This document shows, piece after piece, positions 164-55,545 of a DNA stretch of 64,000 bases. The first letter of the stretch is position 1; every line of letters begins with the position of its first letter. The stretch spans positions 56,504-120,503 of the forward strand of contig CAZSFR010000001.1 in NCBI GenBank assembly GCA_964606295.1, written 5' to 3'. Under the pieces are notes generated by a model that saw only the letters and a program-made list of their open reading frames with translations, made no database searches and was not told where the DNA came from. Origin of the DNA: an uncultured Candidatus Saccharibacteria bacterium (lineage in GTDB: Bacteria > Patescibacteriota > Minisyncoccia > Phycocordibacterales > UBA9973). Made by a program: the position numbers and the translations under genes.

Positions 164-898
164 CTATTGGAGCGTAAACGCCGCTTTCACAGTAATCATG
201 ACCTCCTTATTGATTTGTGATGTGTCGTACGAGCCGTAATCAGTAATTTCTGTCGAGTTGGATGAAAGAACCTGAACGACTCCTGAGGATGCGCTTTTTA
301 GTTTGCCTACATTCTTGCCTGACGCTTCTGCAAGAGCGTTGGCTCTAGCTTCTGCATCTTTTACTGCCTCACCGAGAAGTGACACGCGTAGTTCAGGCAA
401 TGTGGAAATATAGTATTCAAGCGAATTGGTCTGGAAGATAACTCCCTGTCCGATAAGCGCGTCAACATTTTTTGCTACTTGAGTTACTTTGTCTACGTCA
501 CTCGAGTTAACTGTCAGGCTCTGTGTAAGAATATACTCCTTTTCGTTGTAGCTCACTTGCTGACCGTAGCTATAATTTTCATAAAATGAAACAGCGGATA
601 TGGTGATTGCTTCTTCTGGAATTCCAGCAGTCGTTAAGAAATTTTTTACCTTTGTCAAATCAGATGCCATCTGTTGGTAGCCACCGCTAAGACTTGTTAC
701 TTTAGATGCGCGTGTAAACTGAGAGTTCCATTTTACTGTGTCTGATACAACAGAAGCCTTTGCACTTCCGGTAACGGAAAGAGTGTTATCAAGAGATCGA
801 ATCTTGTAAAACGTTACTCCAATTATTATAGAGGCGAGGATAATGGCACTCCCCATTATCGCTCCAAAAGGAATCATGAAGTTTTTGTTTGTTTCCAT
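164..898 (-). CDS. SIMPL-domain (DUF541, YggE-like) periplasmic/surface protein with an N-terminal membrane anchor.
   Basis: N-terminal TM helix, then the block pattern typical of SIMPL proteins (TGSAKASVVSDTVKW…, …ILTQSLTV…, C-terminal VMITVKAAF). 244 aa. Confidence 0.55.
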   Translation of the reverse strand: METNKNFMIPFGAIMGSAIILASIIIGVTFYKIRSLDNTLSVTGSAKASVVSDTVKWNSQFTRASKVTSLSGGYQQMASDLTKVKNFLTTAGIPEEAITISAVSFYENYSYGQQVSYNEKEYILTQSLTVNSSDVDKVTQVAKNVDALIGQGVIFQTNSLEYYISTLPELRVSLLGEAVKDAEARANALAEASGKNVGKLKSASSGVVQVLSSNSTEITDYGSYDTSQINKEVMITVKAAFTLQ

Positions 899-934
899 TG
901 TATTAGTATACGCTTCTTTATATAAATAAGAAAT

Positions 935-1975
935 CTATGTTTTGACACTGAAACTTTCACGGTACATGGAAAGAAGTGTGTGGAGCAAGCTAACTGTGAG
1001 TGGACCTAGGAGGATTCCTGCTGGGCCAAGAAGCGCAATACCGCCTAAAACAGCAAAGAGGATGACGAGTGGCGGAAGAGCCACTCCACGGCCAACGAAA
1101 TAAGGCGTAAGAATGTTGTCTACAAGTCCTACAATAATTGCTGACCACGCGATTAGTCCAAAAGCCTGCGGCTGACTTCCTGTTGCAAGTAGGAAGATGA
1201 CCGCCGGGATCCAAACAAGGCCAGTACCAATCATTGGAATTAGCGAGCCGAGTCCTGCCACTACTCCCCAGAGAGCAGGGTTGGGTACATTGAATATCCA
1301 GAGACCTATCCCCATCAGCACTCCCTGAAGGACAGCGACCAAAAGGTAGCCTTTCACAACACCATTTATTGTCTGCTTCATTCTCTCAAGTATTTTCATG
1401 TCATTAGAATCAGAGAGTGGAGAAAGTTCTATAAGAAATTTTCTCCAATGATCCCCATCTTTGAGAAAATAAAAAAGTGAGAGAGTCATAAGTAAAAGCG
1501 AAAGGACAGTGCCGAGCGTCGCAGTAAAAATATTTGCAACGTTCTCTGTAATGAATGCTACTATATCTGCTATCTTATCCTGAATGTTGAAAGTGGTCAC
1601 CCCAGGAAGTCTCTCATTAAACGAATTTGAGAGATTTAGAATGAAAGGATTGGCGCCACTATCTGTGGTGAGGGTTGTGTAAAGACTTTGTGATTGATGA
1701 AACACAAGTGTCCCTATTCCAAAGAGTGGACCACAAAGAACGACGAGAAATACAAGTACAGTCAAAAAGGCCGCAGGCCATTTATAACCGCGAGTTACCT
1801 TCTGAAGTAAATATGTATATAGCGGAGATATCGCGACAGCGATTGACGCGCTCAAGATGATAACAATGAAGAATGGTTTAATAATGAAAAATGCTAGAAC
1901 TGCAACTAAAAGGAGGAGTCCGAAAAAAAAATATCTTTCATTTAATTTACTTTGCATAGACGCAAAGTATAGCAT
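935..1975 (-). CDS. AI-2E family transporter (PerM/YhhT, UPF0118).
   Basis: Multi-TM protein carrying the family signature GIGLWIFNVPNPALWGVVAGLGSLIPMIGTGLVWIPAVIF. Confidence 0.8.
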   Translation of the reverse strand: MLYFASMQSKLNERYFFFGLLLLVAVLAFFIIKPFFIVIILSASIAVAISPLYTYLLQKVTRGYKWPAAFLTVLVFLVVLCGPLFGIGTLVFHQSQSLYTTLTTDSGANPFILNLSNSFNERLPGVTTFNIQDKIADIVAFITENVANIFTATLGTVLSLLLMTLSLFYFLKDGDHWRKFLIELSPLSDSNDMKILERMKQTINGVVKGYLLVAVLQGVLMGIGLWIFNVPNPALWGVVAGLGSLIPMIGTGLVWIPAVIFLLATGSQPQAFGLIAWSAIIVGLVDNILTPYFVGRGVALPPLVILFAVLGGIALLGPAGILLGPLTVSLLHTLLSMYRESFSVKT

Positions 1976-1988
1976 AGCGTACGAATAA

Positions 1989-2432
1989 CTATATGTTCAC
2001 CTTTCGATACTTTTTGTTCTTCCATTTGTCTGCCATTTTGACTCGAGTGAGCGATCGCTCGAGTTCGCCTTCAAATGCTTCGAAGTCCACGACTTCATTA
2101 CCGTCTTTAAGCTTCTTTAGCTCTTCTGCGCGGGCTTTTGCTTTTGCTAGCACTTCGTCAGATATGTCGGCTACGTGTTCTGCGAAGTCTGCGAGAATTT
2201 TTACGACATTTCCAGAGACTTCGATGAATCCTCCAGAGACTGCCATGGGGACCAATTCCCCATTTACTTTTGCTACCACATCGCCAGAAGCGAGTGTTGA
2301 TATAAGTGGAATATGATCGGGAAGGACGGTGATCTCCCCTTCACCTGTAGGCAAAGTCACCAAATCCACCATCTCGTCGAGGACTATGCGTTCTGGTGTA
2401 ATTATTTTGAGTTGTAATTGTTTAGTCGCCAT
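1989..2432 (-). CDS. atpC: F1 ATP synthase epsilon subunit.
   Basis: 147 aa. N-terminal beta-sandwich motif (LQLKIITPERIVLDEMVDLVTLPTGEGEITVLPDH) and a C-terminal helical tail. Last gene of the atp operon. Confidence 0.85.
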   Translation of the reverse strand: MATKQLQLKIITPERIVLDEMVDLVTLPTGEGEITVLPDHIPLISTLASGDVVAKVNGELVPMAVSGGFIEVSGNVVKILADFAEHVADISDEVLAKAKARAEELKKLKDGNEVVDFEAFEGELERSLTRVKMADKWKNKKYRKVNI

Positions 2433-2439
2433 TTAAATA

Positions 2440-3798
<1,359 letters not shown>

Positions 3799-3820
3799 CT
3801 AGTATTACTGATAATATAAT

Positions 3821-4099
3821 TTATAATTTACTCTCTCTGTATATAAGCATTCGTAGATCGTCATCATTCCTTGCTAGAAGTCCTTTAACTTCATATCTTA
3901 ATTTTTTTAATCTTAATATTTCTCTTGAGACTCCTTCTTCATTATTTCTTTTTTGAAAAGACTCCCCTTTTTTCCATCCATCGTTTATCAAATTTTGACT
4001 TAAGATTATTTGTTTATTTTCATCCAAAATAAAACTTTCACTTATATAAGCAAGTCTACCGAGTTCAGTCTGATTATAATTTTTGTCCGGTGTATTCAT
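3821..4099 (-). CDS. Hypothetical 92-aa protein inserted between atpG and atpD.
   Basis: ORF sitting in a 314-bp AT-rich spacer inside the atp operon. No recognisable domain. Confidence 0.3.
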   Translation of the reverse strand: MNTPDKNYNQTELGRLAYISESFILDENKQIILSQNLINDGWKKGESFQKRNNEEGVSREILRLKKLRYEVKGLLARNDDDLRMLIYRESKL

Positions 4100-4106
4100 A
4101 ATACTT

Positions 4107-5012
4107 TTAACTCACACTTGCCATTCCGGCGCTAATTTCTGATATTTCTTTTGTAATTGCTGCCTGACGGGCTTTGTTGAATGCTAGCGTCAAGTCGTCA
4201 ATCATCTCCCCTGCCGCTTCTGACGCATTCTTCATTGCCATCATACGACTCGACTGCTCTGAAGCTGAGGATTCGAGGATCATCTGGTAGACCTGAGAAC
4301 GTGCGATTTTTTCGACGAGCTTTGACATGAGTGCGTCGTAACCGGGTTCGAAAGTGTAGGAAGTAGCATTTGACTTTTGACCATTGACGTTTGACTCAGC
4401 ATTCTCACCCAATGTTTCTACACTCTTTTCAACTTCACTTATCGAGACAGGAAGTATAGGGCGGATAGCTGGTTTGGAAACGAGAGCGGAGATGAAGTCG
4501 GTGTAAGCAATGTAGACTTTGTCGTATGTGCCGTTTGCGTAGTCTGCCATGATTAGATTTCCTATCGGCAGAACATCGCGAAATGTTGCGTTGTCTGGAA
4601 GCTCTGTAAATGATGCGACTATGTTTTGTCCGAGTCTGCGGAGTGCTGCTTCCCCCTTCTTCCCTACTGCAACAAAAGAAATTTGTTTTCCGTCATTTTC
4701 CTTAATCATTTTCATCACAGCACGGATTATCTGTGCATTGTATGCTCCACAAAGTCCGCGATTGGAAGTGATGAGGACGACGAGGACGTTTTTCACCTCG
4801 CGCTTCTTGAGAAGAGCGTGCTCACTTTCGCCACCTGATTGTGAGAGCGATTCGAGAATCTCCCAAGATGCTTGTGCGTATGGGCGAGATGCGAGGGTCG
4901 CTGTTACAGCCCGCTTCATTTTGGAAGCAGAAACAAGCTCCATGGCTTTGGTTATCTTTTTCGTGTTCTTGACACTCTTTATTCGTCTTTTTATATCAAG
5001 TGATCCTGCCAT
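4107..5012 (-). CDS. atpG: F1 ATP synthase gamma subunit.
   Basis: 301 aa. N-terminal MAGSLDIKRRIKSVKNTKKITKAMELVSASKMKRA and C-terminal …LTLAFNKARQAAITKEISEI are typical AtpG ends. Confidence 0.9.
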   Translation of the reverse strand: MAGSLDIKRRIKSVKNTKKITKAMELVSASKMKRAVTATLASRPYAQASWEILESLSQSGGESEHALLKKREVKNVLVVLITSNRGLCGAYNAQIIRAVMKMIKENDGKQISFVAVGKKGEAALRRLGQNIVASFTELPDNATFRDVLPIGNLIMADYANGTYDKVYIAYTDFISALVSKPAIRPILPVSISEVEKSVETLGENAESNVNGQKSNATSYTFEPGYDALMSKLVEKIARSQVYQMILESSASEQSSRMMAMKNASEAAGEMIDDLTLAFNKARQAAITKEISEISAGMASVS

Positions 5013-9170: not shown

Positions 9171-9437
9171 CTATTCTTTGATTACATCTACATTCTTCTC
9201 AGGTGTCTCAAGTGCGGTCATTGCTTTTCTTGATTCTTTGACTATCCCTATCATTGAAACAATGAATGCTATACCTGTCAGTCCAAGAAAGACAATCGGT
9301 TCAGAATCAAATTTTCGATCAAGCGATTTCCCTACTATTAATGATGCAACTATTGGAAGTGCAATCCATCCTGAAATTTTTAGAAAAAGGAAGAGTGCCG
9401 GTTGCCATGATTTTTTGTTACTATTTTTATTTTCCAT
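9171..9437 (-). CDS. AtpZ/AtpI-like small membrane protein; first gene of the atp operon.
   Basis: 88-aa, two-TM basic protein immediately upstream of atpB. This is the usual position of atpI/atpZ. Confidence 0.45.
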   Translation of the reverse strand: MENKNSNKKSWQPALFLFLKISGWIALPIVASLIVGKSLDRKFDSEPIVFLGLTGIAFIVSMIGIVKESRKAMTALETPEKNVDVIKE

Positions 9438-9488
9438 AACTTATGTGAGAAAGAATCCCTTCTCGCTTATGCCGAGGTTTGCAGGCAA

Positions 9489-9512
9489 GGAACTTTCGGC
9501 TTCTGTCTTACC
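9489..9512 (-). repeat. Partial copy (21 of 23 nt) of the tRNA-Ile internal segment (anticodon 3' stem, variable loop, T-stem 5' side), 30 bp downstream of the intact tRNA.
   Basis: Minus-strand GTAAGACAGAAGCCGAAAGTTCC versus tRNA ATAAGACAGAGGCCGAAAGTTCG. Confidence 0.6.
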
Positions 9513-9541
9513 GCGCCCCGTCGCAATGTTGAAAACTAAGT

Positions 9542-9613
9542 GCGTGTGGAAAGAATCGAACTTTCGGCCTCTGTCTTATCAGGACAGCGTTCTACCACTG
9601 AACTACACACGCA
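9542..9613 (-). tRNA. tRNA-Ile (anticodon GAU). No encoded CCA.
   Basis: Hand-folded cloverleaf. Acceptor stem GCGUGUG/CACACGC with 7 of 7 bp, D-arm GUUC…GAAC, anticodon stem CUGUC/GACAG with loop CUGAUAA, 5-nt variable region, T-arm GAAAG-UUCGAUU-CUUUC, discriminator A. Confidence 0.8.
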
Positions 9614-9680
9614 CTTAATTTTCAAAGCATTACATTGCGACTGGGGTCAGGATCCTAGAATCAAAACAAGTTTGGTACGG

Positions 9681-9705
9681 GACACATCAACGTTCTACCA
9701 CTGAA
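9681..9705 (-). repeat. Exact 25-nt copy of the tRNA-Ile 5' end (acceptor 5' strand plus D-arm), 67 bp upstream of the intact tRNA. No matching 3' half follows it.
   Basis: GCGTGTGTAGTTCAGTGGTAGAACG is present twice, at 9589-9613 and at 9681-9705, both on the minus strand. Confidence 0.7.
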
Positions 9706-9770
9706 CTACACACGCAAAAATGAGCTTTCAGGGCAAGCTCGCGGTCATATAGTAGCAAAATAAGGCTCAT

Positions 9771-9811
9771 TTCGCAAATAAAATAGCCGGTGAACATCAT
9801 TCACCGGCTAT
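9771..9811 (-). terminator. Rho-independent terminator downstream of the 152-aa ORF.
   Basis: Perfect 12-bp stem ATAGCCGGTGAA/TTCACCGGCTAT with a 5-nt loop, followed by a U-rich run on the minus strand. Confidence 0.55.
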
Positions 9812-9816
9812 GAGCA

Positions 9817-10275
9817 TTATGCTCGGTTCTTTATGGCTGTTTTGTGTGTACGTTTTACGTACACACGCTGTTTGAACTTTCTTTGGGGAGTTTGAAATCC
9901 CTCCCCATCAAAAGGTACTTTTTCAACAATTTCGCACCATTCGGGCAAATCGATCGAAAAGCGGATCAAAGCACGAGATTCTTTCGAACCTGCATGTGCA
10001 TCATAATCCCAGCTTAAACGATAAAACTTATGTCCGTTCTTCAGGAGTTTCAAACACCATTCGAAAGGAGCAATGATAATAGGGATCTCCCTGTTCTTTA
10101 TTGCTTTTTCGAACCGCGTTCGGAATTCCTCCCAAGATTTATGTCGCTTCTTTTTTGATGGTAAAATGACCGTATCTTTGCCAAAATGTTTGGTAATGAG
10201 GAATTTTTCTTTTGGCAACAACTCATGTTGTGATAAAAAAACAACATGAGGAAAATCGTCTGTTTTCGAACACAT
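9817..10275 (-). CDS. Hypothetical basic 152-aa protein.
   Basis: Clean ORF ending just before a terminator. No recognisable motif. Confidence 0.45.
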   Translation of the reverse strand: MCSKTDDFPHVVFLSQHELLPKEKFLITKHFGKDTVILPSKKKRHKSWEEFRTRFEKAIKNREIPIIIAPFEWCLKLLKNGHKFYRLSWDYDAHAGSKESRALIRFSIDLPEWCEIVEKVPFDGEGFQTPQRKFKQRVYVKRTHKTAIKNRA

Positions 10276-10371
10276 CTTTCTGTTTGTTTTCGTTAAAAAA
10301 ATTGTTTGTTGTTTTGTTTTTTGGCAAGTCCTCCTATGGCTTGCTTTTATGTTGTTAGAAATTTTGTTTTG

Positions 10372-10935
10372 TTATAAGCATAGCCTCTTGCGCTCGAAGC
10401 TAAAATTAACTTCGCTGATTCGATGAGGTGAAATATATAGACACGGAATGTTCTCATCCGCCTCGTCGAAATCAATTTCTGCATCGTCGGGATTCAAGCA
10501 ATTGAGAACAATCTGGTTCATCTCTGCGTCAGGCTCGATTGAAACTCTGATTGAATCTGTAATCTGCCCGTCTGCAGTATAAAACTGATGTTTGCCGGAG
10601 AATTCTGTTTCTGTAAACAAAACATCTCTTCCTGCAAAAATCTCAACATAAAACGAGATGGATGTAATCACTGGTTGAACATAGTGGTTCCCAATGACAA
10701 ACATCGTTCGTGTCCAATGCATCATCCTCAAAATATCCTCTGCCTCAGAAGAATGGAGTACATTCGCCCTTACTGCAAGTGTGCATGTCTCGTTGTTTAT
10801 ACCAAAATCAAAATTTGTGTCTCTCAGACTTCGGACCAGCGCTTTCACGCTGTCGAAAATCTCTTCTTGATCTGGAACGTCATCTGCAACCTCTCTTAAC
10901 CTAAAGAAAGGAAGTTCGCCTATTAAGTTTTTCAT
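10372..10935 (-). CDS. Hypothetical acidic 187-aa protein.
   Basis: Clean ORF. No recognisable motif. Confidence 0.45.
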   Translation of the reverse strand: MKNLIGELPFFRLREVADDVPDQEEIFDSVKALVRSLRDTNFDFGINNETCTLAVRANVLHSSEAEDILRMMHWTRTMFVIGNHYVQPVITSISFYVEIFAGRDVLFTETEFSGKHQFYTADGQITDSIRVSIEPDAEMNQIVLNCLNPDDAEIDFDEADENIPCLYISPHRISEVNFSFERKRLCL

Positions 10936-10986
10936 GTCAAAAAATTTTTGTGATTATGAAATCTATCTTGCCTCAACTATACCAGT

Positions 10987-12648
10987 CTAAAGAGCCTTGT
11001 CAATCGAGAGAGTGAGTGCGAATGTCGAGCCTTTGCCCACACCAGCTGAATCAGCTGAAAGCGTGCCTTTGTGAGCTTCTACTATCTGCTTGGCAAGGTA
11101 GAGACCGAGACCTGAACCACCAGAGTTCACCTTGGCGCCTTCGCCTCTTGCGAATTTACCGAACAAGGCCGTTTTGGTTTCTGGGCTCATGCCGATACCT
11201 GTATCTGTGATTGTGAGGATTACCTTTCTGCTTGCAGTATGCTGAACGAGCTTTATCTTGATTGTCCCCTCCTTCGTATATTTGATTGAATTATCTATCA
11301 AGTTGAGGATGACTTGGCGGAGTTTCTCCATATCTCCGTAGACGATATATGGTGCGAGATCGTCGTCTTCGTATGTCATGACAAGCCTATTGTTTGTAGC
11401 AGTGATAGAGAGATCGGCGACAATATCAGTTACTGCCTTTTTCATATCGAATTGATTCATTTCGAAACTCAACCCGCCTTGCTCGATTTTGGAAACATTC
11501 AAAAGATCTTCCACGACTTTGACTAGATGATTGGTTGATTCGAAAATGCGGTGTAATGGCTCGCTCTGCTTTTCCCCAAGCTCTCCAAAACTTCCCTCGA
11601 TAAGCATTGAGGAGTAGCCTTTGATTGCGGTCAGCGGACTCCTGAGTTGGTGTGACGCAAGCGAGAGGAATTCGGTCTTGAGTCGATCCTTTTGCTTCAA
11701 ACTTTCGTTAAGTATTTGTAAACGGTCAGAAAATGATTCGAGTTGCTTACGTTGCTCGACCTCTCTCTTTACGCTTTTGATTAGTAAGTATCCAAAGAAC
11801 ATTGAAAGCAGGAGCGTGATTGTGACCAAAACAACAGCAGTTTTTGATTCAATAAACAAATATTCTGAGCCAATCAAGAATATAAGAGCAGCAAACAACA
11901 TCTGAGCACTCAATAACTTTATGTTAAAAAGCTGAAACCGAACTATAAGAATTGAGAGCGCAGAAATAAAGACAACAATGCCGAAGAGTCCATATGATTC
12001 ATACGTATATACACCAGTTAGATCAGAAATATATCCCGTTGCCAAGAAAGAAAAGAGGAATCCTATAATTCCTATGGACAAAATAACAATAAGTTTTTTG
12101 GAAATATTGGTGCTTCGTAAAAATTCTCTACCTAGATAAAAAAGCGTTAGAGCAGTGAAAAAGATTTTCAAGCCAAATACGTAATTTAAAAAAAGAGGAT
12201 TCTCTATTGCTACACATTCAGGCAGATCATATAGGGCAAGATTCAACTTTGTGGGCGCAGCAACAATAAGAGGCACGATGATGCCTATAAAAAATAATTT
12301 AGCTCTTGAGCTAAGATCACGCTGGTGCAAGAAAACAAAAGTAAAATAAAATGTCAGTGCAAACATGATTACTGCCATGAGCTCAATGACTGACCATGCG
12401 GTCATAACGATTGAACTATGTGCATAACCGAGCCAAATCAAAAGATTACAAACCACCCAAACGCTAAAAAATATTGATAGTCCTAAAAGTATATTCGCCA
12501 ATCGAGAATGTTTTGCTTGTGAACGAACGAACATAGCAACAACAAGTGTCATGACGGCTGCTGGTATATGACAATACAGCAAAACCGTCTTGAGTGAGTC
12601 GACAAATTCTTTACAATATGCGAGGTTTGCTGGAAAATTGAAGTCCAT
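10987..12648 (-). CDS. Sensor histidine kinase with an N-terminal multi-TM (7-8 helix) sensor domain. No cognate response regulator is adjacent.
   Basis: HisKA phospho-acceptor box LSLASHQLRSPLTAIKGYSSML. HATPase_c N, G1 and G2 boxes (…DNSIKYT…, …DTGIGM…, …GSGLGL…). About 8 predicted TM helices in the first 300 aa. Confidence 0.85.
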   Translation of the reverse strand: MDFNFPANLAYCKEFVDSLKTVLLYCHIPAAVMTLVVAMFVRSQAKHSRLANILLGLSIFFSVWVVCNLLIWLGYAHSSIVMTAWSVIELMAVIMFALTFYFTFVFLHQRDLSSRAKLFFIGIIVPLIVAAPTKLNLALYDLPECVAIENPLFLNYVFGLKIFFTALTLFYLGREFLRSTNISKKLIVILSIGIIGFLFSFLATGYISDLTGVYTYESYGLFGIVVFISALSILIVRFQLFNIKLLSAQMLFAALIFLIGSEYLFIESKTAVVLVTITLLLSMFFGYLLIKSVKREVEQRKQLESFSDRLQILNESLKQKDRLKTEFLSLASHQLRSPLTAIKGYSSMLIEGSFGELGEKQSEPLHRIFESTNHLVKVVEDLLNVSKIEQGGLSFEMNQFDMKKAVTDIVADLSITATNNRLVMTYEDDDLAPYIVYGDMEKLRQVILNLIDNSIKYTKEGTIKIKLVQHTASRKVILTITDTGIGMSPETKTALFGKFARGEGAKVNSGGSGLGLYLAKQIVEAHKGTLSADSAGVGKGSTFALTLSIDKAL

Positions 12649-12651
12649 ACA

Positions 12652-13455
12652 TTAAAGCAGATTTTTTACATCACTATTGTACCACAACCATTCATTTGCA
12701 AGTTCACTTCTCAGTGGGAGCAAGGGTATGATAAGGGGGCGTACACCAAAGTACTCTTCAACTTTTTTAAAACTTGGCAGTACTTTTGTACAAAAAAATT
12801 CATACTCATCTGGATCCTGAGAAAAATAGTTTTCAAAAAGTATGCCGTGGACAACAAATAAAGTAAAAAAAGCAAAATAATACTCATTGTTTGAATTTTT
12901 GGTTATATCAAACCATTCCGCAAAATCATGAATGTGTGAGTATGAATCAGGAAAAACACTTTTGAAGAGTCTATGATGAAGGTCGACGACGGATTCGCCG
13001 GTATACGTCTGTATGTCTTTAAACATTTTCCCCTCTGTGGCATTAAAATCGATAATATTTTTTTTCTCCGATATAAATCTATGCCCATCCCGCTTGGTCA
13101 CGAAGTACATTTTTCCCAAAAGATATTTTTCGGAATTCATATTCACGAACTTTCCTGGATACTCAAGTATAAGAGGATCAAGTCCTACCATCTTGCTCAT
13201 TTCCAGAAAATACTTCATTTCAAAGTTTGGAGTTGCGATACAACGAGAGATAATTGCTCTCAACTCGCCCACCAACGGTTCAGGAATGCCATGTAAAGCA
13301 AAAAAATCCGAGACCTTGGTCTGGAGTTCTAGATCATGTTGTCGTTCTTTCAATGTTCGTAAAGCTTCTGAAAAAGGTGTGTATACACTTTCTACAAGAT
13401 CAGATCTCTGGCTAGCGGTAAGAGACTCGTAATCCATACCTACAAAAGATCGCAA
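12652..13455 (-). CDS. Hypothetical 267-aa cytoplasmic protein. Overlaps the upstream Cys-rich ORF by 16 nt.
   Basis: Clean ORF. No motif I can assign. Confidence 0.45.
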   Translation of the reverse strand: MRSFVGMDYESLTASQRSDLVESVYTPFSEALRTLKERQHDLELQTKVSDFFALHGIPEPLVGELRAIISRCIATPNFEMKYFLEMSKMVGLDPLILEYPGKFVNMNSEKYLLGKMYFVTKRDGHRFISEKKNIIDFNATEGKMFKDIQTYTGESVVDLHHRLFKSVFPDSYSHIHDFAEWFDITKNSNNEYYFAFFTLFVVHGILFENYFSQDPDEYEFFCTKVLPSFKKVEEYFGVRPLIIPLLPLRSELANEWLWYNSDVKNLL

Positions 13456-13826
13456 CTATTTTCTGTTTCGAGCATACTAATATTCTCTTCTGTGCATTCA
13501 AAAAGCAGACACCCCCCGCTTTCACATAGGTCAGTTATGCAGTCAGCACTTTGACACATGCTTGCATCCTTTGCATTAAAATACGCAAACTGGAAGTAAG
13601 CATCGATGCCGTCGTAGGAATACTCAAGACATCGAATATCATCCTCAGCGCATACTTCGGTAAAGCAATTCGAAACGAAAGGATCACAGGAGACTTTGCC
13701 GTACAAGGTATAGTTTTTGTTCACACTATAAGAAATGATTGAGTTTGCAATACATGCGATAATTGCAATCGCGAAAAGAATAATTGAGAGGATGTTCGTT
13801 TGCTTAGACTTTTCAGAATTTTCCAT
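13440..13826 (-). CDS. Small membrane-anchored cysteine-rich protein (12 Cys in about 90 extracytoplasmic residues).
   Basis: N-terminal TM helix (ILSIILFAIAIIACIANSII), then a domain dense in Cys with CxxxC/CxxC spacing. Confidence 0.45.
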   Translation of the reverse strand: MENSEKSKQTNILSIILFAIAIIACIANSIISYSVNKNYTLYGKVSCDPFVSNCFTEVCAEDDIRCLEYSYDGIDAYFQFAYFNAKDASMCQSADCITDLCESGGCLLFECTEENISMLETENSCDLL

Positions 13827-13844
13827 AATACTAAGTATATCAAA

Positions 13845-13870
13845 CTACAGAATTCTGTACAGAATTCTAA
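13845..13870. promoter_or_regulatory. Tandem palindromic motif ACAGAATTCTGT-ACAGAATTCT, immediately upstream of the Cys-rich/267-aa gene pair. Operator-like.
   Basis: Perfect 12-bp palindrome followed by a second 10-bp copy. Confidence 0.35.
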
Positions 13871-14794
13871 TTAGCTGAACACTATTAATGTGCCTATAAA
13901 CATGATACCTATGGCGAGTAGTTTGGGAGCTAAAGACTTAAAATTAAACTTCTCATTTACTATATGTGGGGCATAAAGCGTACAATAATATGTTAAGAGC
14001 AACACAATTACAGGTTGAAATGAATAGTTGACTATATAGACCAAGGTGATAGGCACCAGCAGTGTAGCAAAACTATTCATGAAATTTGCACCAATTGTGA
14101 TAAATTCGCTTGCAATATTTACCCCCAGAATAGTTCTTCCGTCATTTCGAATCATACCAAGGAAGGATGCGCGATAACGCTTGTGAAAAACAAATATCAC
14201 AATACCTGCAACCCCAAGACCAAGATATTGCCAAAATGTTGAAATCCAAAAGGTATATTCTGTAGTGACGAGTTTAAACAAGATACTGCTGAGCCCAACA
14301 ATGAAGCATGTAAAAAGCATTAGCAGTGCGACTTTCTTCTTAAATCGGAGTTCTGTATGAATCACTGTAAAATCAATTGAATGCACAAGTCCTCCTAATA
14401 CTATAACGACTCCACCAATTATTTGATTTCGTGTCAAAACTTCACCTAAAATAAGATATCCCAAGATGAAGGAAAACACAGGAATAGTGAAAAACCATAC
14501 CACCACATGAGAGATGTCTTCTATTTCAATGGCTCGTAAGTAAAAAATAATCCAAACTATTGTAATTACTCCAACAAGGAGTAGAAGCAACTTATCTGTA
14601 TTTGGTATCGAAAAGATATTACCTGCAAAAATAAATATTCCAAGGGCTACAATTATACCAACAAGACTCGAAAAAAGAGCGAGCGCGCCCACTGAGTGTT
14701 CGCTTTTTTTATGCTTCTTAACAAGATATTGATCTGCAATACTAACAAGTGCCCCAAGAAAAGGTGCACCAATCGCAAGAAGAAACCAATTCAT
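13871..14794 (-). CDS. EamA/DMT-superfamily transporter (10 TM).
   Basis: 307-aa polytopic protein with the two-repeat 5+5 TM architecture typical of EamA. Confidence 0.55.
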   Translation of the reverse strand: MNWFLLAIGAPFLGALVSIADQYLVKKHKKSEHSVGALALFSSLVGIIVALGIFIFAGNIFSIPNTDKLLLLLVGVITIVWIIFYLRAIEIEDISHVVVWFFTIPVFSFILGYLILGEVLTRNQIIGGVVIVLGGLVHSIDFTVIHTELRFKKKVALLMLFTCFIVGLSSILFKLVTTEYTFWISTFWQYLGLGVAGIVIFVFHKRYRASFLGMIRNDGRTILGVNIASEFITIGANFMNSFATLLVPITLVYIVNYSFQPVIVLLLTYYCTLYAPHIVNEKFNFKSLAPKLLAIGIMFIGTLIVFS

Positions 14795-14799
14795 ACAAT

Positions 14800-15864
14800 T
14801 TAAATTCCCTCTTCAGCTAACTTCTGTACTAGATCTTTGCCTTTATGAGAGAGTTTCTTGGGAAATATTATATCAACCTTGACCAACATATCTCCGCGCT
14901 TTCCTTTTCCATTTGGAATTCCCTTTTCTCGCAGGCGAAGCATTTCTCCGTGAACAATGCCTTCTGGAATTTTGATCGATAGTGGTCCGTCGAGCGTACC
15001 CACTGTATATGAAGCACCCAGGAGCGCATCAGAAAGCTTGATTTTCAAATGTGTAACGATGTTTGAACCCTCACGTATATAATTGGGATCTCGCGTCACA
15101 TTGATTTTGATATACAAATCTCCCGCGACACCTTGTGAAACCGCTTCTCCCATAGATGTCATACGTATCATCTGTCCGTCATCGATACCTGCAGGGATGG
15201 CAACGGTAATCTCCTCCTGCTTTTTTCTGATCCCAAGCCCGTGGCATTCCTTACAGAGTTTCTCCGGAATCTCTCCACGGCCATTGCATGTCGTACACAC
15301 ATGTTCTACGGTAAATGATCCCAAGATAGTACGTTTTGATTCATGAACTCTTCCTTTCCCATTACATTTTGTACATTGCTTGAATGCACTGTGGAGCTCT
15401 CCGCCACGTCCTTCGCACGCGTCGCATGTGCCAACTTTTGAAATAAGAATCTTGCGTTCAACACCAAAGACAGCCTCCTTAAATGAAATTGTTATTTCTG
15501 TAGAAATATCACGACCGCGCCTTGTTTGACTTTGTCTTCCACCAAAAAAGTCTGAAAAAATATCGCCCATGTCGCCCATATCGAATCCTTCCTGATTCTG
15601 ATAGCCACCCCAGTCAAATCCAAATCCTGCACCGTTGGCACCAGCTCCGCCGTTTGCAAATGTCTCGCCGTAGCGGTCGTACTCAGCACGCTTTCTCTCG
15701 TCTGAAAGTATTTGATATGCTTCGTTTACCTCTTTGAACTTGGCGTCATCTCCGTTGTTTTTATCAGGATGGTATTTGTGAGCAAGTTTGTGAAATGCCT
15801 TTTTTATATCGTCCTTTGTCGACGATTTGGTGACGCCGAGCATGTTGTAGTAGTCCTTTGCCAT
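14800..15864 (-). CDS. dnaJ: Chaperone DnaJ. True start is MAKDYY at 15864, directly preceded by a TTGTATAAT extended -10 element.
   Basis: J domain with HPD (KAFHKLAHKYHPDKN), Gly/Phe-rich linker, four CxxCxGxG zinc-finger repeats, and a C-terminal domain. Confidence 0.9.
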   Translation of the reverse strand: MAKDYYNMLGVTKSSTKDDIKKAFHKLAHKYHPDKNNGDDAKFKEVNEAYQILSDERKRAEYDRYGETFANGGAGANGAGFGFDWGGYQNQEGFDMGDMGDIFSDFFGGRQSQTRRGRDISTEITISFKEAVFGVERKILISKVGTCDACEGRGGELHSAFKQCTKCNGKGRVHESKRTILGSFTVEHVCTTCNGRGEIPEKLCKECHGLGIRKKQEEITVAIPAGIDDGQMIRMTSMGEAVSQGVAGDLYIKINVTRDPNYIREGSNIVTHLKIKLSDALLGASYTVGTLDGPLSIKIPEGIVHGEMLRLREKGIPNGKGKRGDMLVKVDIIFPKKLSHKGKDLVQKLAEEGI

Positions 15865-15900
15865 ATCGCGATTATACAACAAAATTGTATTTTTGCAAAA

Positions 15901-17106: not shown

Positions 17107-18045
17107 CTACCTATCCCAATTGAAATCTCTCCCGTAATGGCCCCAACCAGACGTCTGTTGAAATATGACGTCTTTTAATTTCAAGGTTTCTCTGATGCCA
17201 CGTGGTGAGAGATCGTAGCCTTCAATATTCATTTGTATTCCATCCACAACAGCCACAGCCATGACAGGTTCTGATTTGCCGATAGCGTACGCTAGCTTCG
17301 TGAAGACTTCTTTTGCCTCAAACTTTTTCAAATAATCAACAGCTATTTTGCGAGCCATATACGCACCTGAACGGTCAACCTTTGTGAAATCTTTGCCAGA
17401 GTATGAGCCACCGCCTATTGGGATTTCGGGGCCGTAGTTATCGACAATGAGTTTTCTTCCAGAGAGTCCTGTGTCTGCATCGAACCCACCTTGAGTCCAT
17501 TCACCTGCAGGATTAATAAAATACTCTTCAGCGACAATAATGCTTTGGACAAGGGGTAGCAAATCTTCATTCTTTGTATTCTGAAAACTACAGACTACAG
17601 TTTTTACATTCCCGTCCGCGAGCGTTACTTGTGTTTTGCCGTCATAAGGATACACTTGAAAGACTTTCTCACAGATTTCTCTTGCAAGCTCATACTCTCT
17701 TGGCAAAAGACTTTTTGTTTCATTAGTTGCATAGCCTTTCATTATACCTTGATCTCCCGCACCGCCAGTATCCACGCCTTGCGCAATTTGTAGACTTTGT
17801 TTTGCAATATTCACTATTACTTTATAGTCCCTGCCGACTATTGTCTCAATGATATTTTCAATATTTGGACTTGCGTTTGATGTGACTTCCCCATTGATGG
17901 TGATCAGATGATGCCCTCCCATCACCTCAACAGCGACACGAGAATCTCTATCCCCCAGAAGATACGCATCGAGTATCGCATCTGCAATAGAGTCACATAT
18001 TTTATCGGGATGCATTGGACTGACAAATTCTGCTGTTTTATTCAT
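17107..18045 (-). CDS. metK: S-adenosylmethionine synthetase, compact 312-aa form.
   Basis: HPDKICDSIADAILDA at the N-terminus, GAGDQGIMKGYA, and GGGSYSGKDFTKVDRSGAYMAR. Confidence 0.9.
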   Translation of the reverse strand: MNKTAEFVSPMHPDKICDSIADAILDAYLLGDRDSRVAVEVMGGHHLITINGEVTSNASPNIENIIETIVGRDYKVIVNIAKQSLQIAQGVDTGGAGDQGIMKGYATNETKSLLPREYELAREICEKVFQVYPYDGKTQVTLADGNVKTVVCSFQNTKNEDLLPLVQSIIVAEEYFINPAGEWTQGGFDADTGLSGRKLIVDNYGPEIPIGGGSYSGKDFTKVDRSGAYMARKIAVDYLKKFEAKEVFTKLAYAIGKSEPVMAVAVVDGIQMNIEGYDLSPRGIRETLKLKDVIFQQTSGWGHYGRDFNWDR

Positions 18046-33399: not shown

Positions 33400-33945
33400 T
33401 TAAAGTATCATCAACTTCTGATATATCTCAAAAAGTGCCCGCGCGTCTGAAAGTGCCGTATGTGCATTTGAATTTTTGATACCAAAATGTCCACAGAGAG
33501 AGTACAAGGAGTAACGCAAGTCCTCAGTGTTGTGAAGCTTCGCAAACGCAAGCGAGATGGTATCAATTCGCGGATAATGCATTGAATTTGGAACTCCCGA
33601 CTGACGAAATGCCTTATCCATGAACGATGCATCAAAGGAGAGGTTGTGCGAGACAAAAATGCAGTCCTTTGTCTTTTTCGCAAATTCCCCCATTGCCTCA
33701 GAGAGACTATATGCAAATACCCAATCAGCTTCGTTGTAGCCGTTGACACGTAGCGCTTGCGGGTCTGCTGTTTCTATATGAGTTGGCTTGATTTTGATTT
33801 CAAATTCATCAAGTTGTGTCAGAACGAGCTTTCCTGAAGACCAATCCTGTGATGCAATAACACAACCAATAGACACGAGCTCGTGTCTATCAAAATCAAG
33901 TCCTGTTGTTTCTGTATCAACAAATGCTAAGTTGTGTTTTTTCAT
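33400..33945 (-). CDS. DEDDh 3'-5' exonuclease (DnaQ/epsilon-like).
   Basis: Exo I FVDTETTGL, Exo II HNLSFD, Exo III HTALSDARA. Confidence 0.8.
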   Translation of the reverse strand: MKKHNLAFVDTETTGLDFDRHELVSIGCVIASQDWSSGKLVLTQLDEFEIKIKPTHIETADPQALRVNGYNEADWVFAYSLSEAMGEFAKKTKDCIFVSHNLSFDASFMDKAFRQSGVPNSMHYPRIDTISLAFAKLHNTEDLRYSLYSLCGHFGIKNSNAHTALSDARALFEIYQKLMIL

Positions 33946-36779: not shown

Positions 36780-37814
36780 TTATCCTGCGAGTGAGTACAA
36801 TCCGTTCTTATTCTTTTTGAAGTACTTTGCATTCTGGAGATTTACTAAAATAGTGTTTCGCTTGAGATATCTCTCTTTGAGAACTTTGTCGATAATATCA
36901 TCTTTTGCTAGAGGACCATCTTTCTTCAAAATATCTTTGATAACTTCCCTAACAACTCCGGACTTATATCCCCATTCACGAAGTGCGTACATACCGCGAC
37001 CGACGAGAACAAAACGTGAATCCTTGATAAGTTCGTTGTGGCAGGTTGCAACATGAGTCTTCTTCCCAAATGTTGCCTCTATAGCTTTTGCAACTTCTCT
37101 AAAATGCATTGGTGAGCCATGTTTTCGCATGACAAGGTAGGCAAAATCTTTTACACCACGAGTTTTCACACTTGATGATGTTGATTTACCCCACTCTCCA
37201 AGAGGGTTTCGAGAAATACCCTTTGATAGATATAGCCATCTCTTCGCCAACTCCTCGTTTTTGTATTCACTTGAAAGATCTTTCAAGTGTGAGATGAATC
37301 TATTGACCATGTCAGGTTCGGTTACGAGCTCATCGTCAGAAAGTGAACCGTAAAGATTTTTGAGAGCAATATGAACAGATTCTGCAACTTCATGTTTGAC
37401 ACTCCATCGCGCTTTGAAATGTTCATCCTCCTTGTGTTTGCTAAAGGCGTCTCCAAGAACTAGATAGAAGTGTACGTGATTCTGGGCAACTTTGTCCTTT
37501 GCGATAGACGTAAGGAAATCCTCTTCTGAAACTATGGCTCCCATATTGTGAATCATTGCTTCGAGTTCATCAAATATTTCTTTCTCCTTTCTATAAGAAT
37601 CTGATTTGCGAATTGCAATAAGTGCGGCATTTTCTATCTGACGAACACGCTCTCGTGTAATACCATATTTTTCACCAATAGTTTCAAGTGTTTTTCTGTC
37701 GTCTTCTTGAAGACCAAAACGGCCCGTTATAACCTCGTGAGCCCTCTCCTGTAAATCATTTAATAGTCTCTTCGTTACTTGCTTTGGTTTGAATGAAATT
37801 TGCTTATTTGACAT
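36780..37814 (-). CDS. Sigma-70 region-4 domain protein fused to a C-terminal HARE-HTH-like domain. Not a complete sigma factor. Start is at MSNKQIS.
   Basis: N-terminal RFGLQEDDRKTLETIGEKYGITRERVRQIENAALIAIRK matches RpoD region 4.2. C-terminal HFREVAKAIEATFGKKTHVATCHNELIKDSRFVLVGRGMYALREWGY resembles the RpoE-delta/HARE-HTH fold. Regions 1.2 to 3 are absent. Confidence 0.55.
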   Translation of the reverse strand: MSNKQISFKPKQVTKRLLNDLQERAHEVITGRFGLQEDDRKTLETIGEKYGITRERVRQIENAALIAIRKSDSYRKEKEIFDELEAMIHNMGAIVSEEDFLTSIAKDKVAQNHVHFYLVLGDAFSKHKEDEHFKARWSVKHEVAESVHIALKNLYGSLSDDELVTEPDMVNRFISHLKDLSSEYKNEELAKRWLYLSKGISRNPLGEWGKSTSSSVKTRGVKDFAYLVMRKHGSPMHFREVAKAIEATFGKKTHVATCHNELIKDSRFVLVGRGMYALREWGYKSGVVREVIKDILKKDGPLAKDDIIDKVLKERYLKRNTILVNLQNAKYFKKNKNGLYSLAG

Positions 37815-44805: not shown

Positions 44806-44846
44806 ATAAAAACGTGGTGCAAATATTTGCACCACGTTATTTTTTT
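44806..44846. terminator. Perfect bidirectional intrinsic terminator shared by convergent pyrE and pyrF (ACGUGGUGCAAA-UAU-UUUGCACCACGU, A-run on one side and T-run on the other).
   Basis: 12-bp perfect stem. The T-run overlaps the pyrF stop. Confidence 0.7.
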
Positions 44847-54606: not shown

Positions 54607-55545
54607 TTATCCAGTCCAGTAATATGCCAATATAGAGAAATCGACAAGCGTAATACGGCCATCTCCTGACAAATCTAGTTCAAGTGGCGCTCCCAATCTC
54701 CCGTACCAATACGCCAATATAGAAAAGTCTGTGATATTCACTCTGCAGTCTCCTGTGAAGTCTCCTTTTGGCGGACAACCTGAATTTAGAACAGTCTCAT
54801 TACCAACAGTAAATCCAACTATACTAGAATAAGATGTTACTTCTGCTCCGAGTGTTGACAACGACCTTGTGCTATGTGAGCCAAGTTCCAATACACCCGT
54901 ATTGAACCTATAGAGATATGCACCATAGTCGTCAGATGTCGTAGACAAAAAATACGGAACCAATGAATTAACATTGATAGTTATCGAAGCGTTTGGTGCA
55001 CTTTCCCCGAGTATAGTGATCGTTTCTCCTTTTGCAACAACAGTCTTATCGATAGATATAGTAGGGGCAATATAGATACCAGAAATAGTAGTCGATATAT
55101 TTTCTGTTACTACAATAGGAAATGTGAAGAGTGTTGACCTTCTCTCTTCACTATCCTCAGCCAAAACAGAAAACGTATACGAACCAGCTGGTAAATCAGA
55201 GATTGTTAGTGTAAATTTTGCATCAAGTCCAGCTGTAGTTTGTGCAATCTCAACTCCGTCTTGCAAAAATATTACTGCGGAGAAGGGATAAGCTCTGCCG
55301 GAGAACGTGACAGATGAATCTCCATCGTTCTGACCTCCTCCACCACCGCCCCCACCACCTCCTGCTCCTCCAGGATCGCCCACAGCAACAGTTGCAGTTA
55401 TGGTGACGTCTTCACTTACAGCACCCAACTCTCTTGGAGTTGAATCGTAAAAGATTCCTACTCCGAGAATGATAATTACAGATAAAATGCACCTGAATGA
55501 TTTATATAAATCATTCTTACTAAACTTTAGGAGTGGAAGTTTCAT
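54607..55545 (-). CDS. Secreted protein with a poly-Gly run (GGAGGGGGGGGGGQ), Ig-like domains and a C-terminal type-I-like dockerin (two Ca-binding repeats).
   Basis: C-terminus GDFTGDCRVNITDFSILAYWYG…DLSGDGRITLVDFSILAYYW is two D-x-x-G-D-x-x-V/I-N/T-x-x-D-F-x-x-L repeats. Confidence 0.55.
   Translation of the reverse strand: MKLPLLKFSKNDLYKSFRCILSVIIILGVGIFYDSTPRELGAVSEDVTITATVAVGDPGGAGGGGGGGGGGQNDGDSSVTFSGRAYPFSAVIFLQDGVEIAQTTAGLDAKFTLTISDLPAGSYTFSVLAEDSEERRSTLFTFPIVVTENISTTISGIYIAPTISIDKTVVAKGETITILGESAPNASITINVNSLVPYFLSTTSDDYGAYLYRFNTGVLELGSHSTRSLSTLGAEVTSYSSIVGFTVGNETVLNSGCPPKGDFTGDCRVNITDFSILAYWYGRLGAPLELDLSGDGRITLVDFSILAYYWTG

Follow-up and report, generated by a model that had tools for sequence, protein, structure and literature searches.

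In a 64-kb stretch of DNA from an uncultured Candidatus Saccharibacteria bacterium (contig CAZSFR010000001.1, positions 56,504 to 120,503 of the forward strand; “the window”, with positions counted from its first base), four adjacent minus-strand genes form one copy of a vertically inherited cassette that is widespread in Patescibacteria, also known as the candidate phyla radiation (CPR). Read in the direction of transcription, the cassette encodes a 307-amino acid (aa) EamA/DMT-family transporter with 10 predicted transmembrane (TM) helices (positions 13871-14794); E, a 128-aa cysteine-rich membrane protein (13440-13826); D, a 261-aa cytoplasmic protein of an unannotated family (12652-13437); and HK, a 553-aa sensor histidine kinase (10987-12648). 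A first-pass annotation had described positions 9817-13870 as an “accessory block” of five minus-strand open reading frames (ORFs): the kinase and four non-kinase ORFs, which we call A, B, D, and E. All five ORFs are present where it placed them, and A, B, D, and E indeed match no family in Pfam, NCBIfam, PHROGs, or PADLOC. The boundary of the block falls elsewhere: the EamA gene, which lay outside the coordinates of that annotation, belongs with E-D-HK, and A and B do not. “Signalling module” is fair as a broad description, but “accessory” does not suit a unit that keeps one gene order across many Patescibacteria lineages, with dnaJ and aminoacyl-tRNA synthetase genes recurring nearby.

The existence of the cassette is evident from its recurrence. 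On each of the contigs where D homologues were first found, a multi-TM kinase gene follows D, and a small cysteine-rich ORF lies upstream. We scanned one genome per species, recruiting loci through two D peptide patterns, and scored cassette members with hidden Markov models (HMMs) built from the first loci and searched in six-frame ORFs. This gave 79 loci, numbered here with the prefix L. Most come from Patescibacteria (Falkowbacteria, Peribacteria, Paceibacterota, Moraniibacteriota, Nomurabacteria, Minisyncoccia, and genomes labelled “Saccharibacteria”), and a few from Nitrospirae, Desulfobulbaceae, Verrucomicrobia, and Bdellovibrionota-labelled metagenome-assembled genomes (MAGs). An orthologous multi-TM kinase lies directly after D, on the same strand, in 60 of the 70 loci with at least 1.8 kb of downstream sequence. 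Co-occurrence of D with the cysteine-rich protein in other genomes, which the first-pass annotation had proposed as a check, is strong: among the 59 loci with at least 3.5 kb on each side, 47 encode both HK and E, five encode HK only, seven encode neither, and none encodes E without HK. In the same 59 loci, the slot upstream is occupied by EamA in 23 cases and by F, a new membrane protein family, in 30; the two never occur together, and six loci have neither.

Several further genes are optional members: genes for SET-domain proteins in 16 loci (in addition to fusions), AdoMetDC-family genes in 12, and response regulators consisting only of receiver (REC) domains in nine. The copy in the window is the minimal four-gene form. 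The cassette sits in conserved housekeeping synteny and not on an island, because dnaJ is found near it in 15 loci and aminoacyl-tRNA synthetase genes also recur in its neighborhood; L003, the closest relative, shares the synteny of dnaJ with EamA-E-D-HK. Other arrangements include L024 (7001-8565), where a tandem pair of D paralogues precedes the kinase and three kinase-sensor-like ORFs are close by. On one metagenomic contig, L007, the region ahead of an F-E-D cassette has a gene for a 1310-aa RHS-repeat/YD-shell protein (742-4674) and, after it, a small ORF.

The identification of HK as a histidine kinase holds. The protein matches HisKA (PF00512, E-value 1.4e-16, residues 324-391), with the H-box SLASHQLRSPLTAIKGY, and HATPase_c (PF02518, 2.6e-26), with the N, G1, F, and G2 boxes as DNSIKYT, DTGIGM, FGKF, and GGSGLGL. 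The eight TM helices assigned to it earlier fit less well, since a crude hydropathy scan gives ~9 hydrophobic segments; a sensor domain of ~8-9 TM helices thus precedes the HisKA and HATPase_c domains. This N-terminal membrane domain aligns over its full length with those of the kinases that follow D in other loci. Its loops are all short. If the N-terminus is outside, the two conserved cysteines in the alignment, C12 and C145, are located in segments predicted to face outward. For the HisKA_7TM sensor domain (PF16927), HK has no Pfam match at E ≤ 1, and its L010 orthologue has only a weak precomputed match.

HK had been called an orphan without a partner response regulator in the window. Indeed, an HMM built from 15 REC sequences detects no REC domain in any ORF of at least 60 aa across the 64 kb. 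“Orphan” is apt in the sense that no response regulator gene is adjacent, but not for a kinase conserved as the partner of D and E, with a sensor domain that is orthologous across loci. The nine related loci with REC-only regulators carry them after the kinase gene. In L010 (12560-13372), L065, L081, L070, L076, L066, L039, and L047, the regulator lacks an output domain and consists either of two REC domains (REC-REC, ~270 aa) or of one (~125 aa). Such an output-free architecture suggests that signaling proceeds through a phosphorelay or protein-protein interaction rather than through direct control of transcription.

The E protein was correctly described as membrane-anchored: it has a single N-terminal TM helix followed by an ectodomain of ~90 aa, from which we infer a type II topology. 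Its cysteines number 11 and not 12, with one in the membrane helix and 10 in the ectodomain; all 10 ectodomain cysteines, and their spacing, are invariant in 20 aligned homologues. In a structural model, which matches no solved fold, a long N-terminal helix (residues 4-36) is predicted to serve as the membrane anchor, and reading the aligned homologues reveals no conserved signal-peptidase motif. We place E on the sensing side of the system because it depends strictly on the kinase, never occurring without HK in the 59 loci with sufficient flanks. In a different reading, raised in the first-pass annotation, E would be secreted as a disulfide-rich effector or peptide product, and D would be the enzyme that matures it. 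The adjacency and co-conservation of the two genes would be expected in that case, but we consider it very unlikely: E keeps its modelled anchor and lacks a conserved cleavage motif, its cysteine pattern is fixed where an effector's might be hypervariable, D occurs without E in several phyla outside Patescibacteria, and the protease or exporter typical of peptide-product clusters is missing.

The start of D bears on a proposal that E and D overlap by 16 nucleotides (nt) and are translationally coupled. That overlap needs a TTG start codon at 13455, giving a 267-aa protein, which is not supported; the 261-aa database gene call (P0001) and the N-termini of the closest homologues instead fit ATG at 13437. 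The E stop codon (13440-13442) is then followed by a 2-nt gap (TAG-GT-ATG), and D and HK are separated by 3 nt.

The D family is large. A word-indexed protein search returned only 12 homologues of D and three of E, badly underestimating both families; an exhaustive profile search corrected this, yielding 919 cluster representatives for D at E ≤ 1e-3, with 441 at ≤1e-30. Nonetheless, the D domain has no Pfam match in any of 150 diverse members. Profile searches with 12- and 150-member alignments gave no credible match in the PDB, and a Foldseek search against the PDB found nothing. An AlphaFold2 (AF2) model built with 12 homologues has a mean predicted local distance difference test score (pLDDT) of 90.3 and a predicted template modelling score (pTM) of 0.89. 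In this confident model, D has a Rossmann (HUP) fold resembling that of class I aminoacyl-tRNA synthetases and BshC, with a Rossmann-like parallel β-sheet core. The HIGH/HxGH and KMSKS signatures are absent, and there is no KMSKS-like loop past the last strand. Approximately 21 positions are at least 90% conserved across the 150 members. The family consensus after strand β1 reads R65-x-I-A-T-P70-N-x-E73, and other positions at this level of conservation are R32, E92, N101, K104, T144, H154, Y187, and E211. The conserved polar residues R65, E73, N101, and K104 come after strands β1 and β2; judging from the order of secondary structure elements in the model, they probably lie at the edge of the sheet where HUP proteins bind their substrates.

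Two known HUP-type assignments were considered for D and rejected. Cyclodipeptide synthases have a G-x-S motif with the catalytic serine after β1 and a Y-x-x-x-E-x-P motif, both of which D lacks. BshC, the cysteine-adding enzyme of bacillithiol synthesis, is a protein of ~540 aa with a coiled-coil architecture that D does not share, and D is not a member of that sequence family.

What D might act on is suggested by its fusions and neighbors. Among the 150 diverse members, the only extra domains with Pfam matches are a C-terminal SET domain (five members) and an N-terminal GNAT domain (two members at E ≤ 0.001, three at E ≤ 0.01). The fused SET domains look catalytically competent, since their NHSC and (E)LxYDY motifs are retained. 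P0154, a 482-aa family member, represents a third kind of fusion: its multi-TM N-terminal domain of ~220 aa has no Pfam match and physically links D to the membrane. Separate SET genes, in the 16 loci mentioned above, occur alongside the recurring D-SET and GNAT-D fusions, and the AdoMetDC-family (PF02675) genes, in 12 loci, immediately precede the cassette. In Nitrospirae, Desulfobulbaceae, Verrucomicrobia, and other groups, D is found without HK or E, beside F or a gene for a SET, GNAT, or SpeD-like protein. In one such locus, from a Desulfobulbaceae MAG (L055, 4935-6356), a gene for a 473-aa protein of the saccharopine dehydrogenase family is followed directly by F and D; from its N-terminus, we take this protein to be homospermidine-synthase-like. 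Homologues of homospermidine synthase (HSS) were sought across the loci, and only L055 has one. In the window, metK, which encodes S-adenosylmethionine (SAM) synthetase, lies ~2.3 kb upstream of the cassette (17107-18045), and it does so in the 65%-identical relative L003 as well; its proximity may be relevant to the SAM-using SET partners found elsewhere, or may be mere synteny.

SET and GNAT proteins, SpeD-type decarboxylases, and HSS all use or yield primary amines. We therefore propose that D acts on a substrate of the polyamine or lysine type; the fusions and the SpeD-like neighbors together suggest amine chemistry. This proposal is in keeping with recent work on SpeD homologues. Those of CPR bacteria (Peribacteria and Kaiserbacteria) are pyruvoyl-dependent ornithine decarboxylases that make putrescine and are encoded in clusters with hss (Li et al. 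2023, PMC10407285). A speDC gene cluster of Ca. Electrothrix, a cable bacterium, is also mentioned in that paper.

The first slot of the cassette is occupied by a membrane protein of one of two types. In the window it is EamA, which matches PF00892 (8.9e-14) over residues 3-136, with the second repeat below threshold, and which has ~10 segments in the crude hydropathy scan. Its start codon is 5 nt past the stop codon of dnaJ (14800-15882), and because of this spacing, the two genes are probably co-transcribed. The alternative occupant, F, is a polytopic protein of ~188 aa with the motifs KKDWLGIE and DPFITT.Y.R.G, encoded, for example, at L035 (5992-6555), L020 (5968-6513), and L046 (7854-8372), as well as in 36 other loci. 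One F member has a sub-threshold VTT/DedA-like Pfam match. F pairs with D even outside Patescibacteria.

Taking these observations together, the best joint explanation, to which we give an even chance, is that the cassette combines an amine pathway (D and the EamA/DMT or F protein) with envelope sensing (E and HK). All of these functional roles are suggested by gene neighborhood and predicted fold. D would be an enzyme with a canonical HUP site at the C-terminal edge of its sheet and with a primary amine of the polyamine or lysine type as substrate. The DMT or F protein would be the membrane transporter for a compound of the D pathway, or for a form of that compound linked to lipid or to the envelope. 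E would act as a disulfide-bonded extracytoplasmic co-sensor paired with the loop-poor membrane domain of HK, and HK would pass the state of the pathway or envelope on to a receiver-only regulator whose gene lies at another genomic location.

The main rival to this explanation is a three-component sensor without any metabolism, by analogy with kinases that have dedicated accessory proteins. Here, D and E would be purely regulatory subunits of HK: E would sense redox or disulfide stress outside the cytoplasm, D would gate HK from the cytoplasm, and the transporter would be a co-sensor. This is plausible, if on the unlikely side. The tight packing of E, D, and HK, with gaps of only 2-3 nt, is consistent with it, as are the strict dependence of E on HK and the short-looped membrane domain with its two conserved, predicted outside cysteines. 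On the other side, D has neither HK nor E in the loci from Nitrospirae, Desulfobulbaceae, Verrucomicrobia, and other groups, and is there paired with F or with a SET, GNAT, or SpeD-like gene. The position of the conserved polar residues of D at the predicted HUP active-site edge, and its fusions to catalytic domains, likewise favor an enzyme.

Several points weigh against the combination of an amine pathway with envelope sensing. SET and GNAT proteins classically modify protein lysines, meaning that the target could be a protein and not a metabolite. AdoMetDC-family neighbors are present in only ~15% of loci, and the window itself has no SpeD-like/AdoMetDC-family, SET, or GNAT gene. The E model, with a pLDDT of 79, is only moderately confident. 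Lastly, recruitment through two D patterns biases the sample of loci, and the co-occurrence counts are raw, with no correction for phylogeny.

A more specific version of the proposal is that the cassette is a Patescibacteria-wide circuit for sensing self or host. As a previously unknown synthase, D would make a signal, or modify the envelope, starting from an amine; a SpeD-type decarboxylase would feed this step, and in some lineages fused SET or GNAT domains would tailor the product. The DMT or F protein would export or flip the product, and E, as a new disulfide-rich surface receptor coupled to the ~9-TM kinase, would read it out. We regard this as speculative and, taken as a whole, rather improbable. 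If true, the circuit would be a candidate for the means by which these ultra-small epibionts keep watch on their envelope or host.

With regard to transcription, the 44-nt gap between EamA and E in the window contains two elements of interest. The first is a tandem palindrome, ACAGAATTCTGT-ACAGAATTCT, at 13847-13868, which has no strand. The sequence there, ACAGAATTCTGTACAGAATTCT, is exactly as first reported, and within it the maximal perfect palindrome is the 20-nt AGAATTCTGTACAGAATTCT (13849-13868). Located after the stop codon of EamA and before the start codon of E, it overlaps the −35-like TGTACA of a weak promoter match. As RNA, it would form an AU-rich hairpin of 8-9 bp inside a structure of −14.8 kcal/mol (z = −2.3). 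The second element is TGATATACT (13834-13842, minus strand), 7 nt upstream of the E start codon, an extended −10-like element that scores 9/12 with TG in a promoter scan. Such TG-extended −10 elements lie 4-12 nt before an in-frame start for 21 of 61 E genes, compared to seven of 86 D genes and four of 72 HK genes. These counts suggest that E is often the first gene of a transcript with a short leader or none, a pattern that the window fits, and TGATATACT is a candidate promoter for such an E-D-HK transcript. Transcription of E-D-HK may thus begin immediately before E, leaving hardly any leader or none. As for the palindrome, its hairpin at the −35 position could act on the dnaJ-eamA transcript as a weak terminator or as an insulator; alternatively, it may bind a regulator.

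The last of these possibilities had been put forward more strongly, with the palindrome as the operator of a dimeric repressor controlling E-D-HK. The palindrome is perfect over 20 nt and coincides with the −35 of a promoter-like site immediately before E, which is suggestive, and it is conserved in six contigs. However, the six contigs are identical and represent one population, such that their agreement carries no information. The palindrome is absent from 46 other EamA/F-E gaps of other genomes, and in L003 the gene calls for EamA and E share 4 nt. No further good copy exists in the 64 kb: copies of the 12-mer at up to two mismatches number seven, against 4.7 expected, and are not enriched. 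Nor is there a regulator or other DNA-binding gene close by. Moreover, long palindromes appear to be a trait of this genome. The window has five perfect palindromes of at least 20 nt, all of different sequence, compared to 0.1 expected from shuffling. The other four are 22-28 nt long (33869-33890, 37268-37289, 44811-44838, and 55495-55516); according to the ORF list, two of these four are within ORFs and that at 55495-55516 is at an ORF junction, while that at 44811-44838 lies between convergent genes and resembles a bidirectional terminator. We consider the operator unlikely, and treat the palindrome as a species-specific hairpin or possible regulatory site outside the conserved system.

The genes at 9.8-14.8 kb are all on the minus strand. 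In the order of transcription, dnaJ and the cassette are followed by a 51-nt gap, B (10372-10935; 187 aa, acidic), a 96-nt gap, A (9817-10275; 152 aa, basic), a terminator-like hairpin, tRNA-Ile (9540-9612), and the ATP synthase operon. A near-consensus sigma-70-like motif, TTGACA-16 nt-TG-TATAGT, lies just ahead of B, within the 3′ end of the HK gene (11003-10976 on the minus strand; 11/12 consensus plus the TG extension). An intrinsic-terminator-like hairpin of 13 pairs followed by TTTATTT (9783-9811, minus strand) comes after A. With a promoter-like motif at one end and a terminator-like hairpin at the other, B-A looks like a separate unit of lineage-specific ORFans outside the cassette. 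Indeed, homologues of A and B are found only in contigs of the same species and are absent from all other cassette loci. B has no match in Pfam, NCBIfam, PHROGs, PADLOC, the PDB, or phage and viral scans. A has no phage, viral, or PDB match and only sub-threshold Pfam matches, e.g., a Tad2-like match with an E-value of 0.01 over 20 residues. Neither was found in mobile elements by tblastn against 50,697 phage records or by pattern scans of IMG/VR. The single metagenome match for B is a proteobacterial CorC gene of high GC content; it was seeded by an exact copy of the peptide FDEADENI and was judged spurious. The single recorded variant of A is an in-frame deletion of one codon, which is weak evidence that A is translated.

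The surroundings of tRNA-Ile have unusual repeats. Partial copies flank the gene, one at 9688-9716 matching its 5′ half (29 nt, 97%) and one at 9490-9510 matching an internal 21-mer (95%), and long inverted repeats (9516-9548 with 9606-9645) lengthen the acceptor stem by ~30 bp. No second tRNA is called at 9490-9716 by ARAGORN or Rfam, and an Rfam scan of 9400-14000 finds only tRNA-Ile. One could therefore ask whether the entire block is a horizontally acquired accessory island next to tRNA-Ile, given the partial tRNA copies, the ORFan status of A and B, and a GC content of 0.36-0.38 at 10-15 kb compared to ~0.42 elsewhere. We think there is very little chance of this. The repeats match the 5′ half and middle of the tRNA, not its 3′ end, and lie beside the tRNA itself; there is no integrase-like ORF at 9.6-14.8 kb, no att-type repeat of the tRNA 3′ end, and no phage or plasmid similarity. 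In addition, the dnaJ synteny seen in L003, and the proximity of dnaJ in other loci, are at odds with horizontal acquisition of the cassette. Insertion is possible for B-A at most.

Recognizing the cassette has several consequences. For annotation, four “hypothetical proteins” and an “orphan kinase” become one defined unit. Patescibacteria have tiny genomes with few signaling systems; a cassette kept across many of their lineages therefore probably has a central role. The D-SET and GNAT-D fusions, together with the polyamine-gene neighborhood, provide a concrete and testable biochemical lead, and the strict alternation of EamA and F, along with the dependence of E on the kinase, makes clear genetic predictions.

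The architecture of the system, in which a sensor kinase is combined with operon-encoded accessory membrane proteins and a transporter, is known. What appears new are the parts D, E, and F, their fixed order, and their distribution across Patescibacteria. None of the three proteins is listed in Pfam, NCBIfam, PHROGs, or PADLOC, matched in the PDB, or mentioned in the literature searched, which likewise contains no description of the cassette. With respect to individual parts, D shares its predicted Rossmann-like fold with HUP-class enzymes (BshC, the catalytic domains of class I aminoacyl-tRNA synthetases, nucleotidyltransferases, ATP sulfurylase, and cyclodipeptide synthases), but it lacks HIGH/HxGH, KMSKS, and SGGxDS motifs and has no sequence-level match to them in Pfam, NCBIfam, or the PDB. 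Clusters for SpeD-derived pyruvoyl ornithine/arginine decarboxylases (PMC10407285) resemble the cassette surroundings in the 12 loci with adjoining AdoMetDC-family genes and in L055 with its HSS-like gene; the connection is one of neighborhood only, since that paper has no D, E, F, or kinase.

The cassette as a whole has parallels in two groups of systems. First, the sensor kinases of the Firmicutes systems WalK-YycH/YycI, LiaF-LiaS, and BceAB-BceS work with membrane accessory proteins, with BceAB being a co-sensor transporter for BceS. As in the cassette, a single operon encodes a kinase with little extracytoplasmic sequence, a single-pass ectodomain protein, and a transporter. However, E, D, and F have no detectable sequence or fold similarity to YycH/YycI, LiaF, or BceAB; HK has ~9 TM helices rather than the two of WalK, LiaS, and BceS; an enzyme-like protein, D, is encoded between the accessory protein and the kinase; and most loci have no adjacent response regulator gene. 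Second, Vibrio CqsA/CqsS and LuxM/LuxN are pairs of a signal synthase and a multi-TM kinase. D is unrelated to LuxM or to CqsA, which is a pyridoxal phosphate (PLP) enzyme, and E and the transporter have no counterpart in these systems, but they resemble the cassette in that the gene for a cytoplasmic enzyme, which D may prove to be, is located directly beside the gene for a polytopic sensor kinase.

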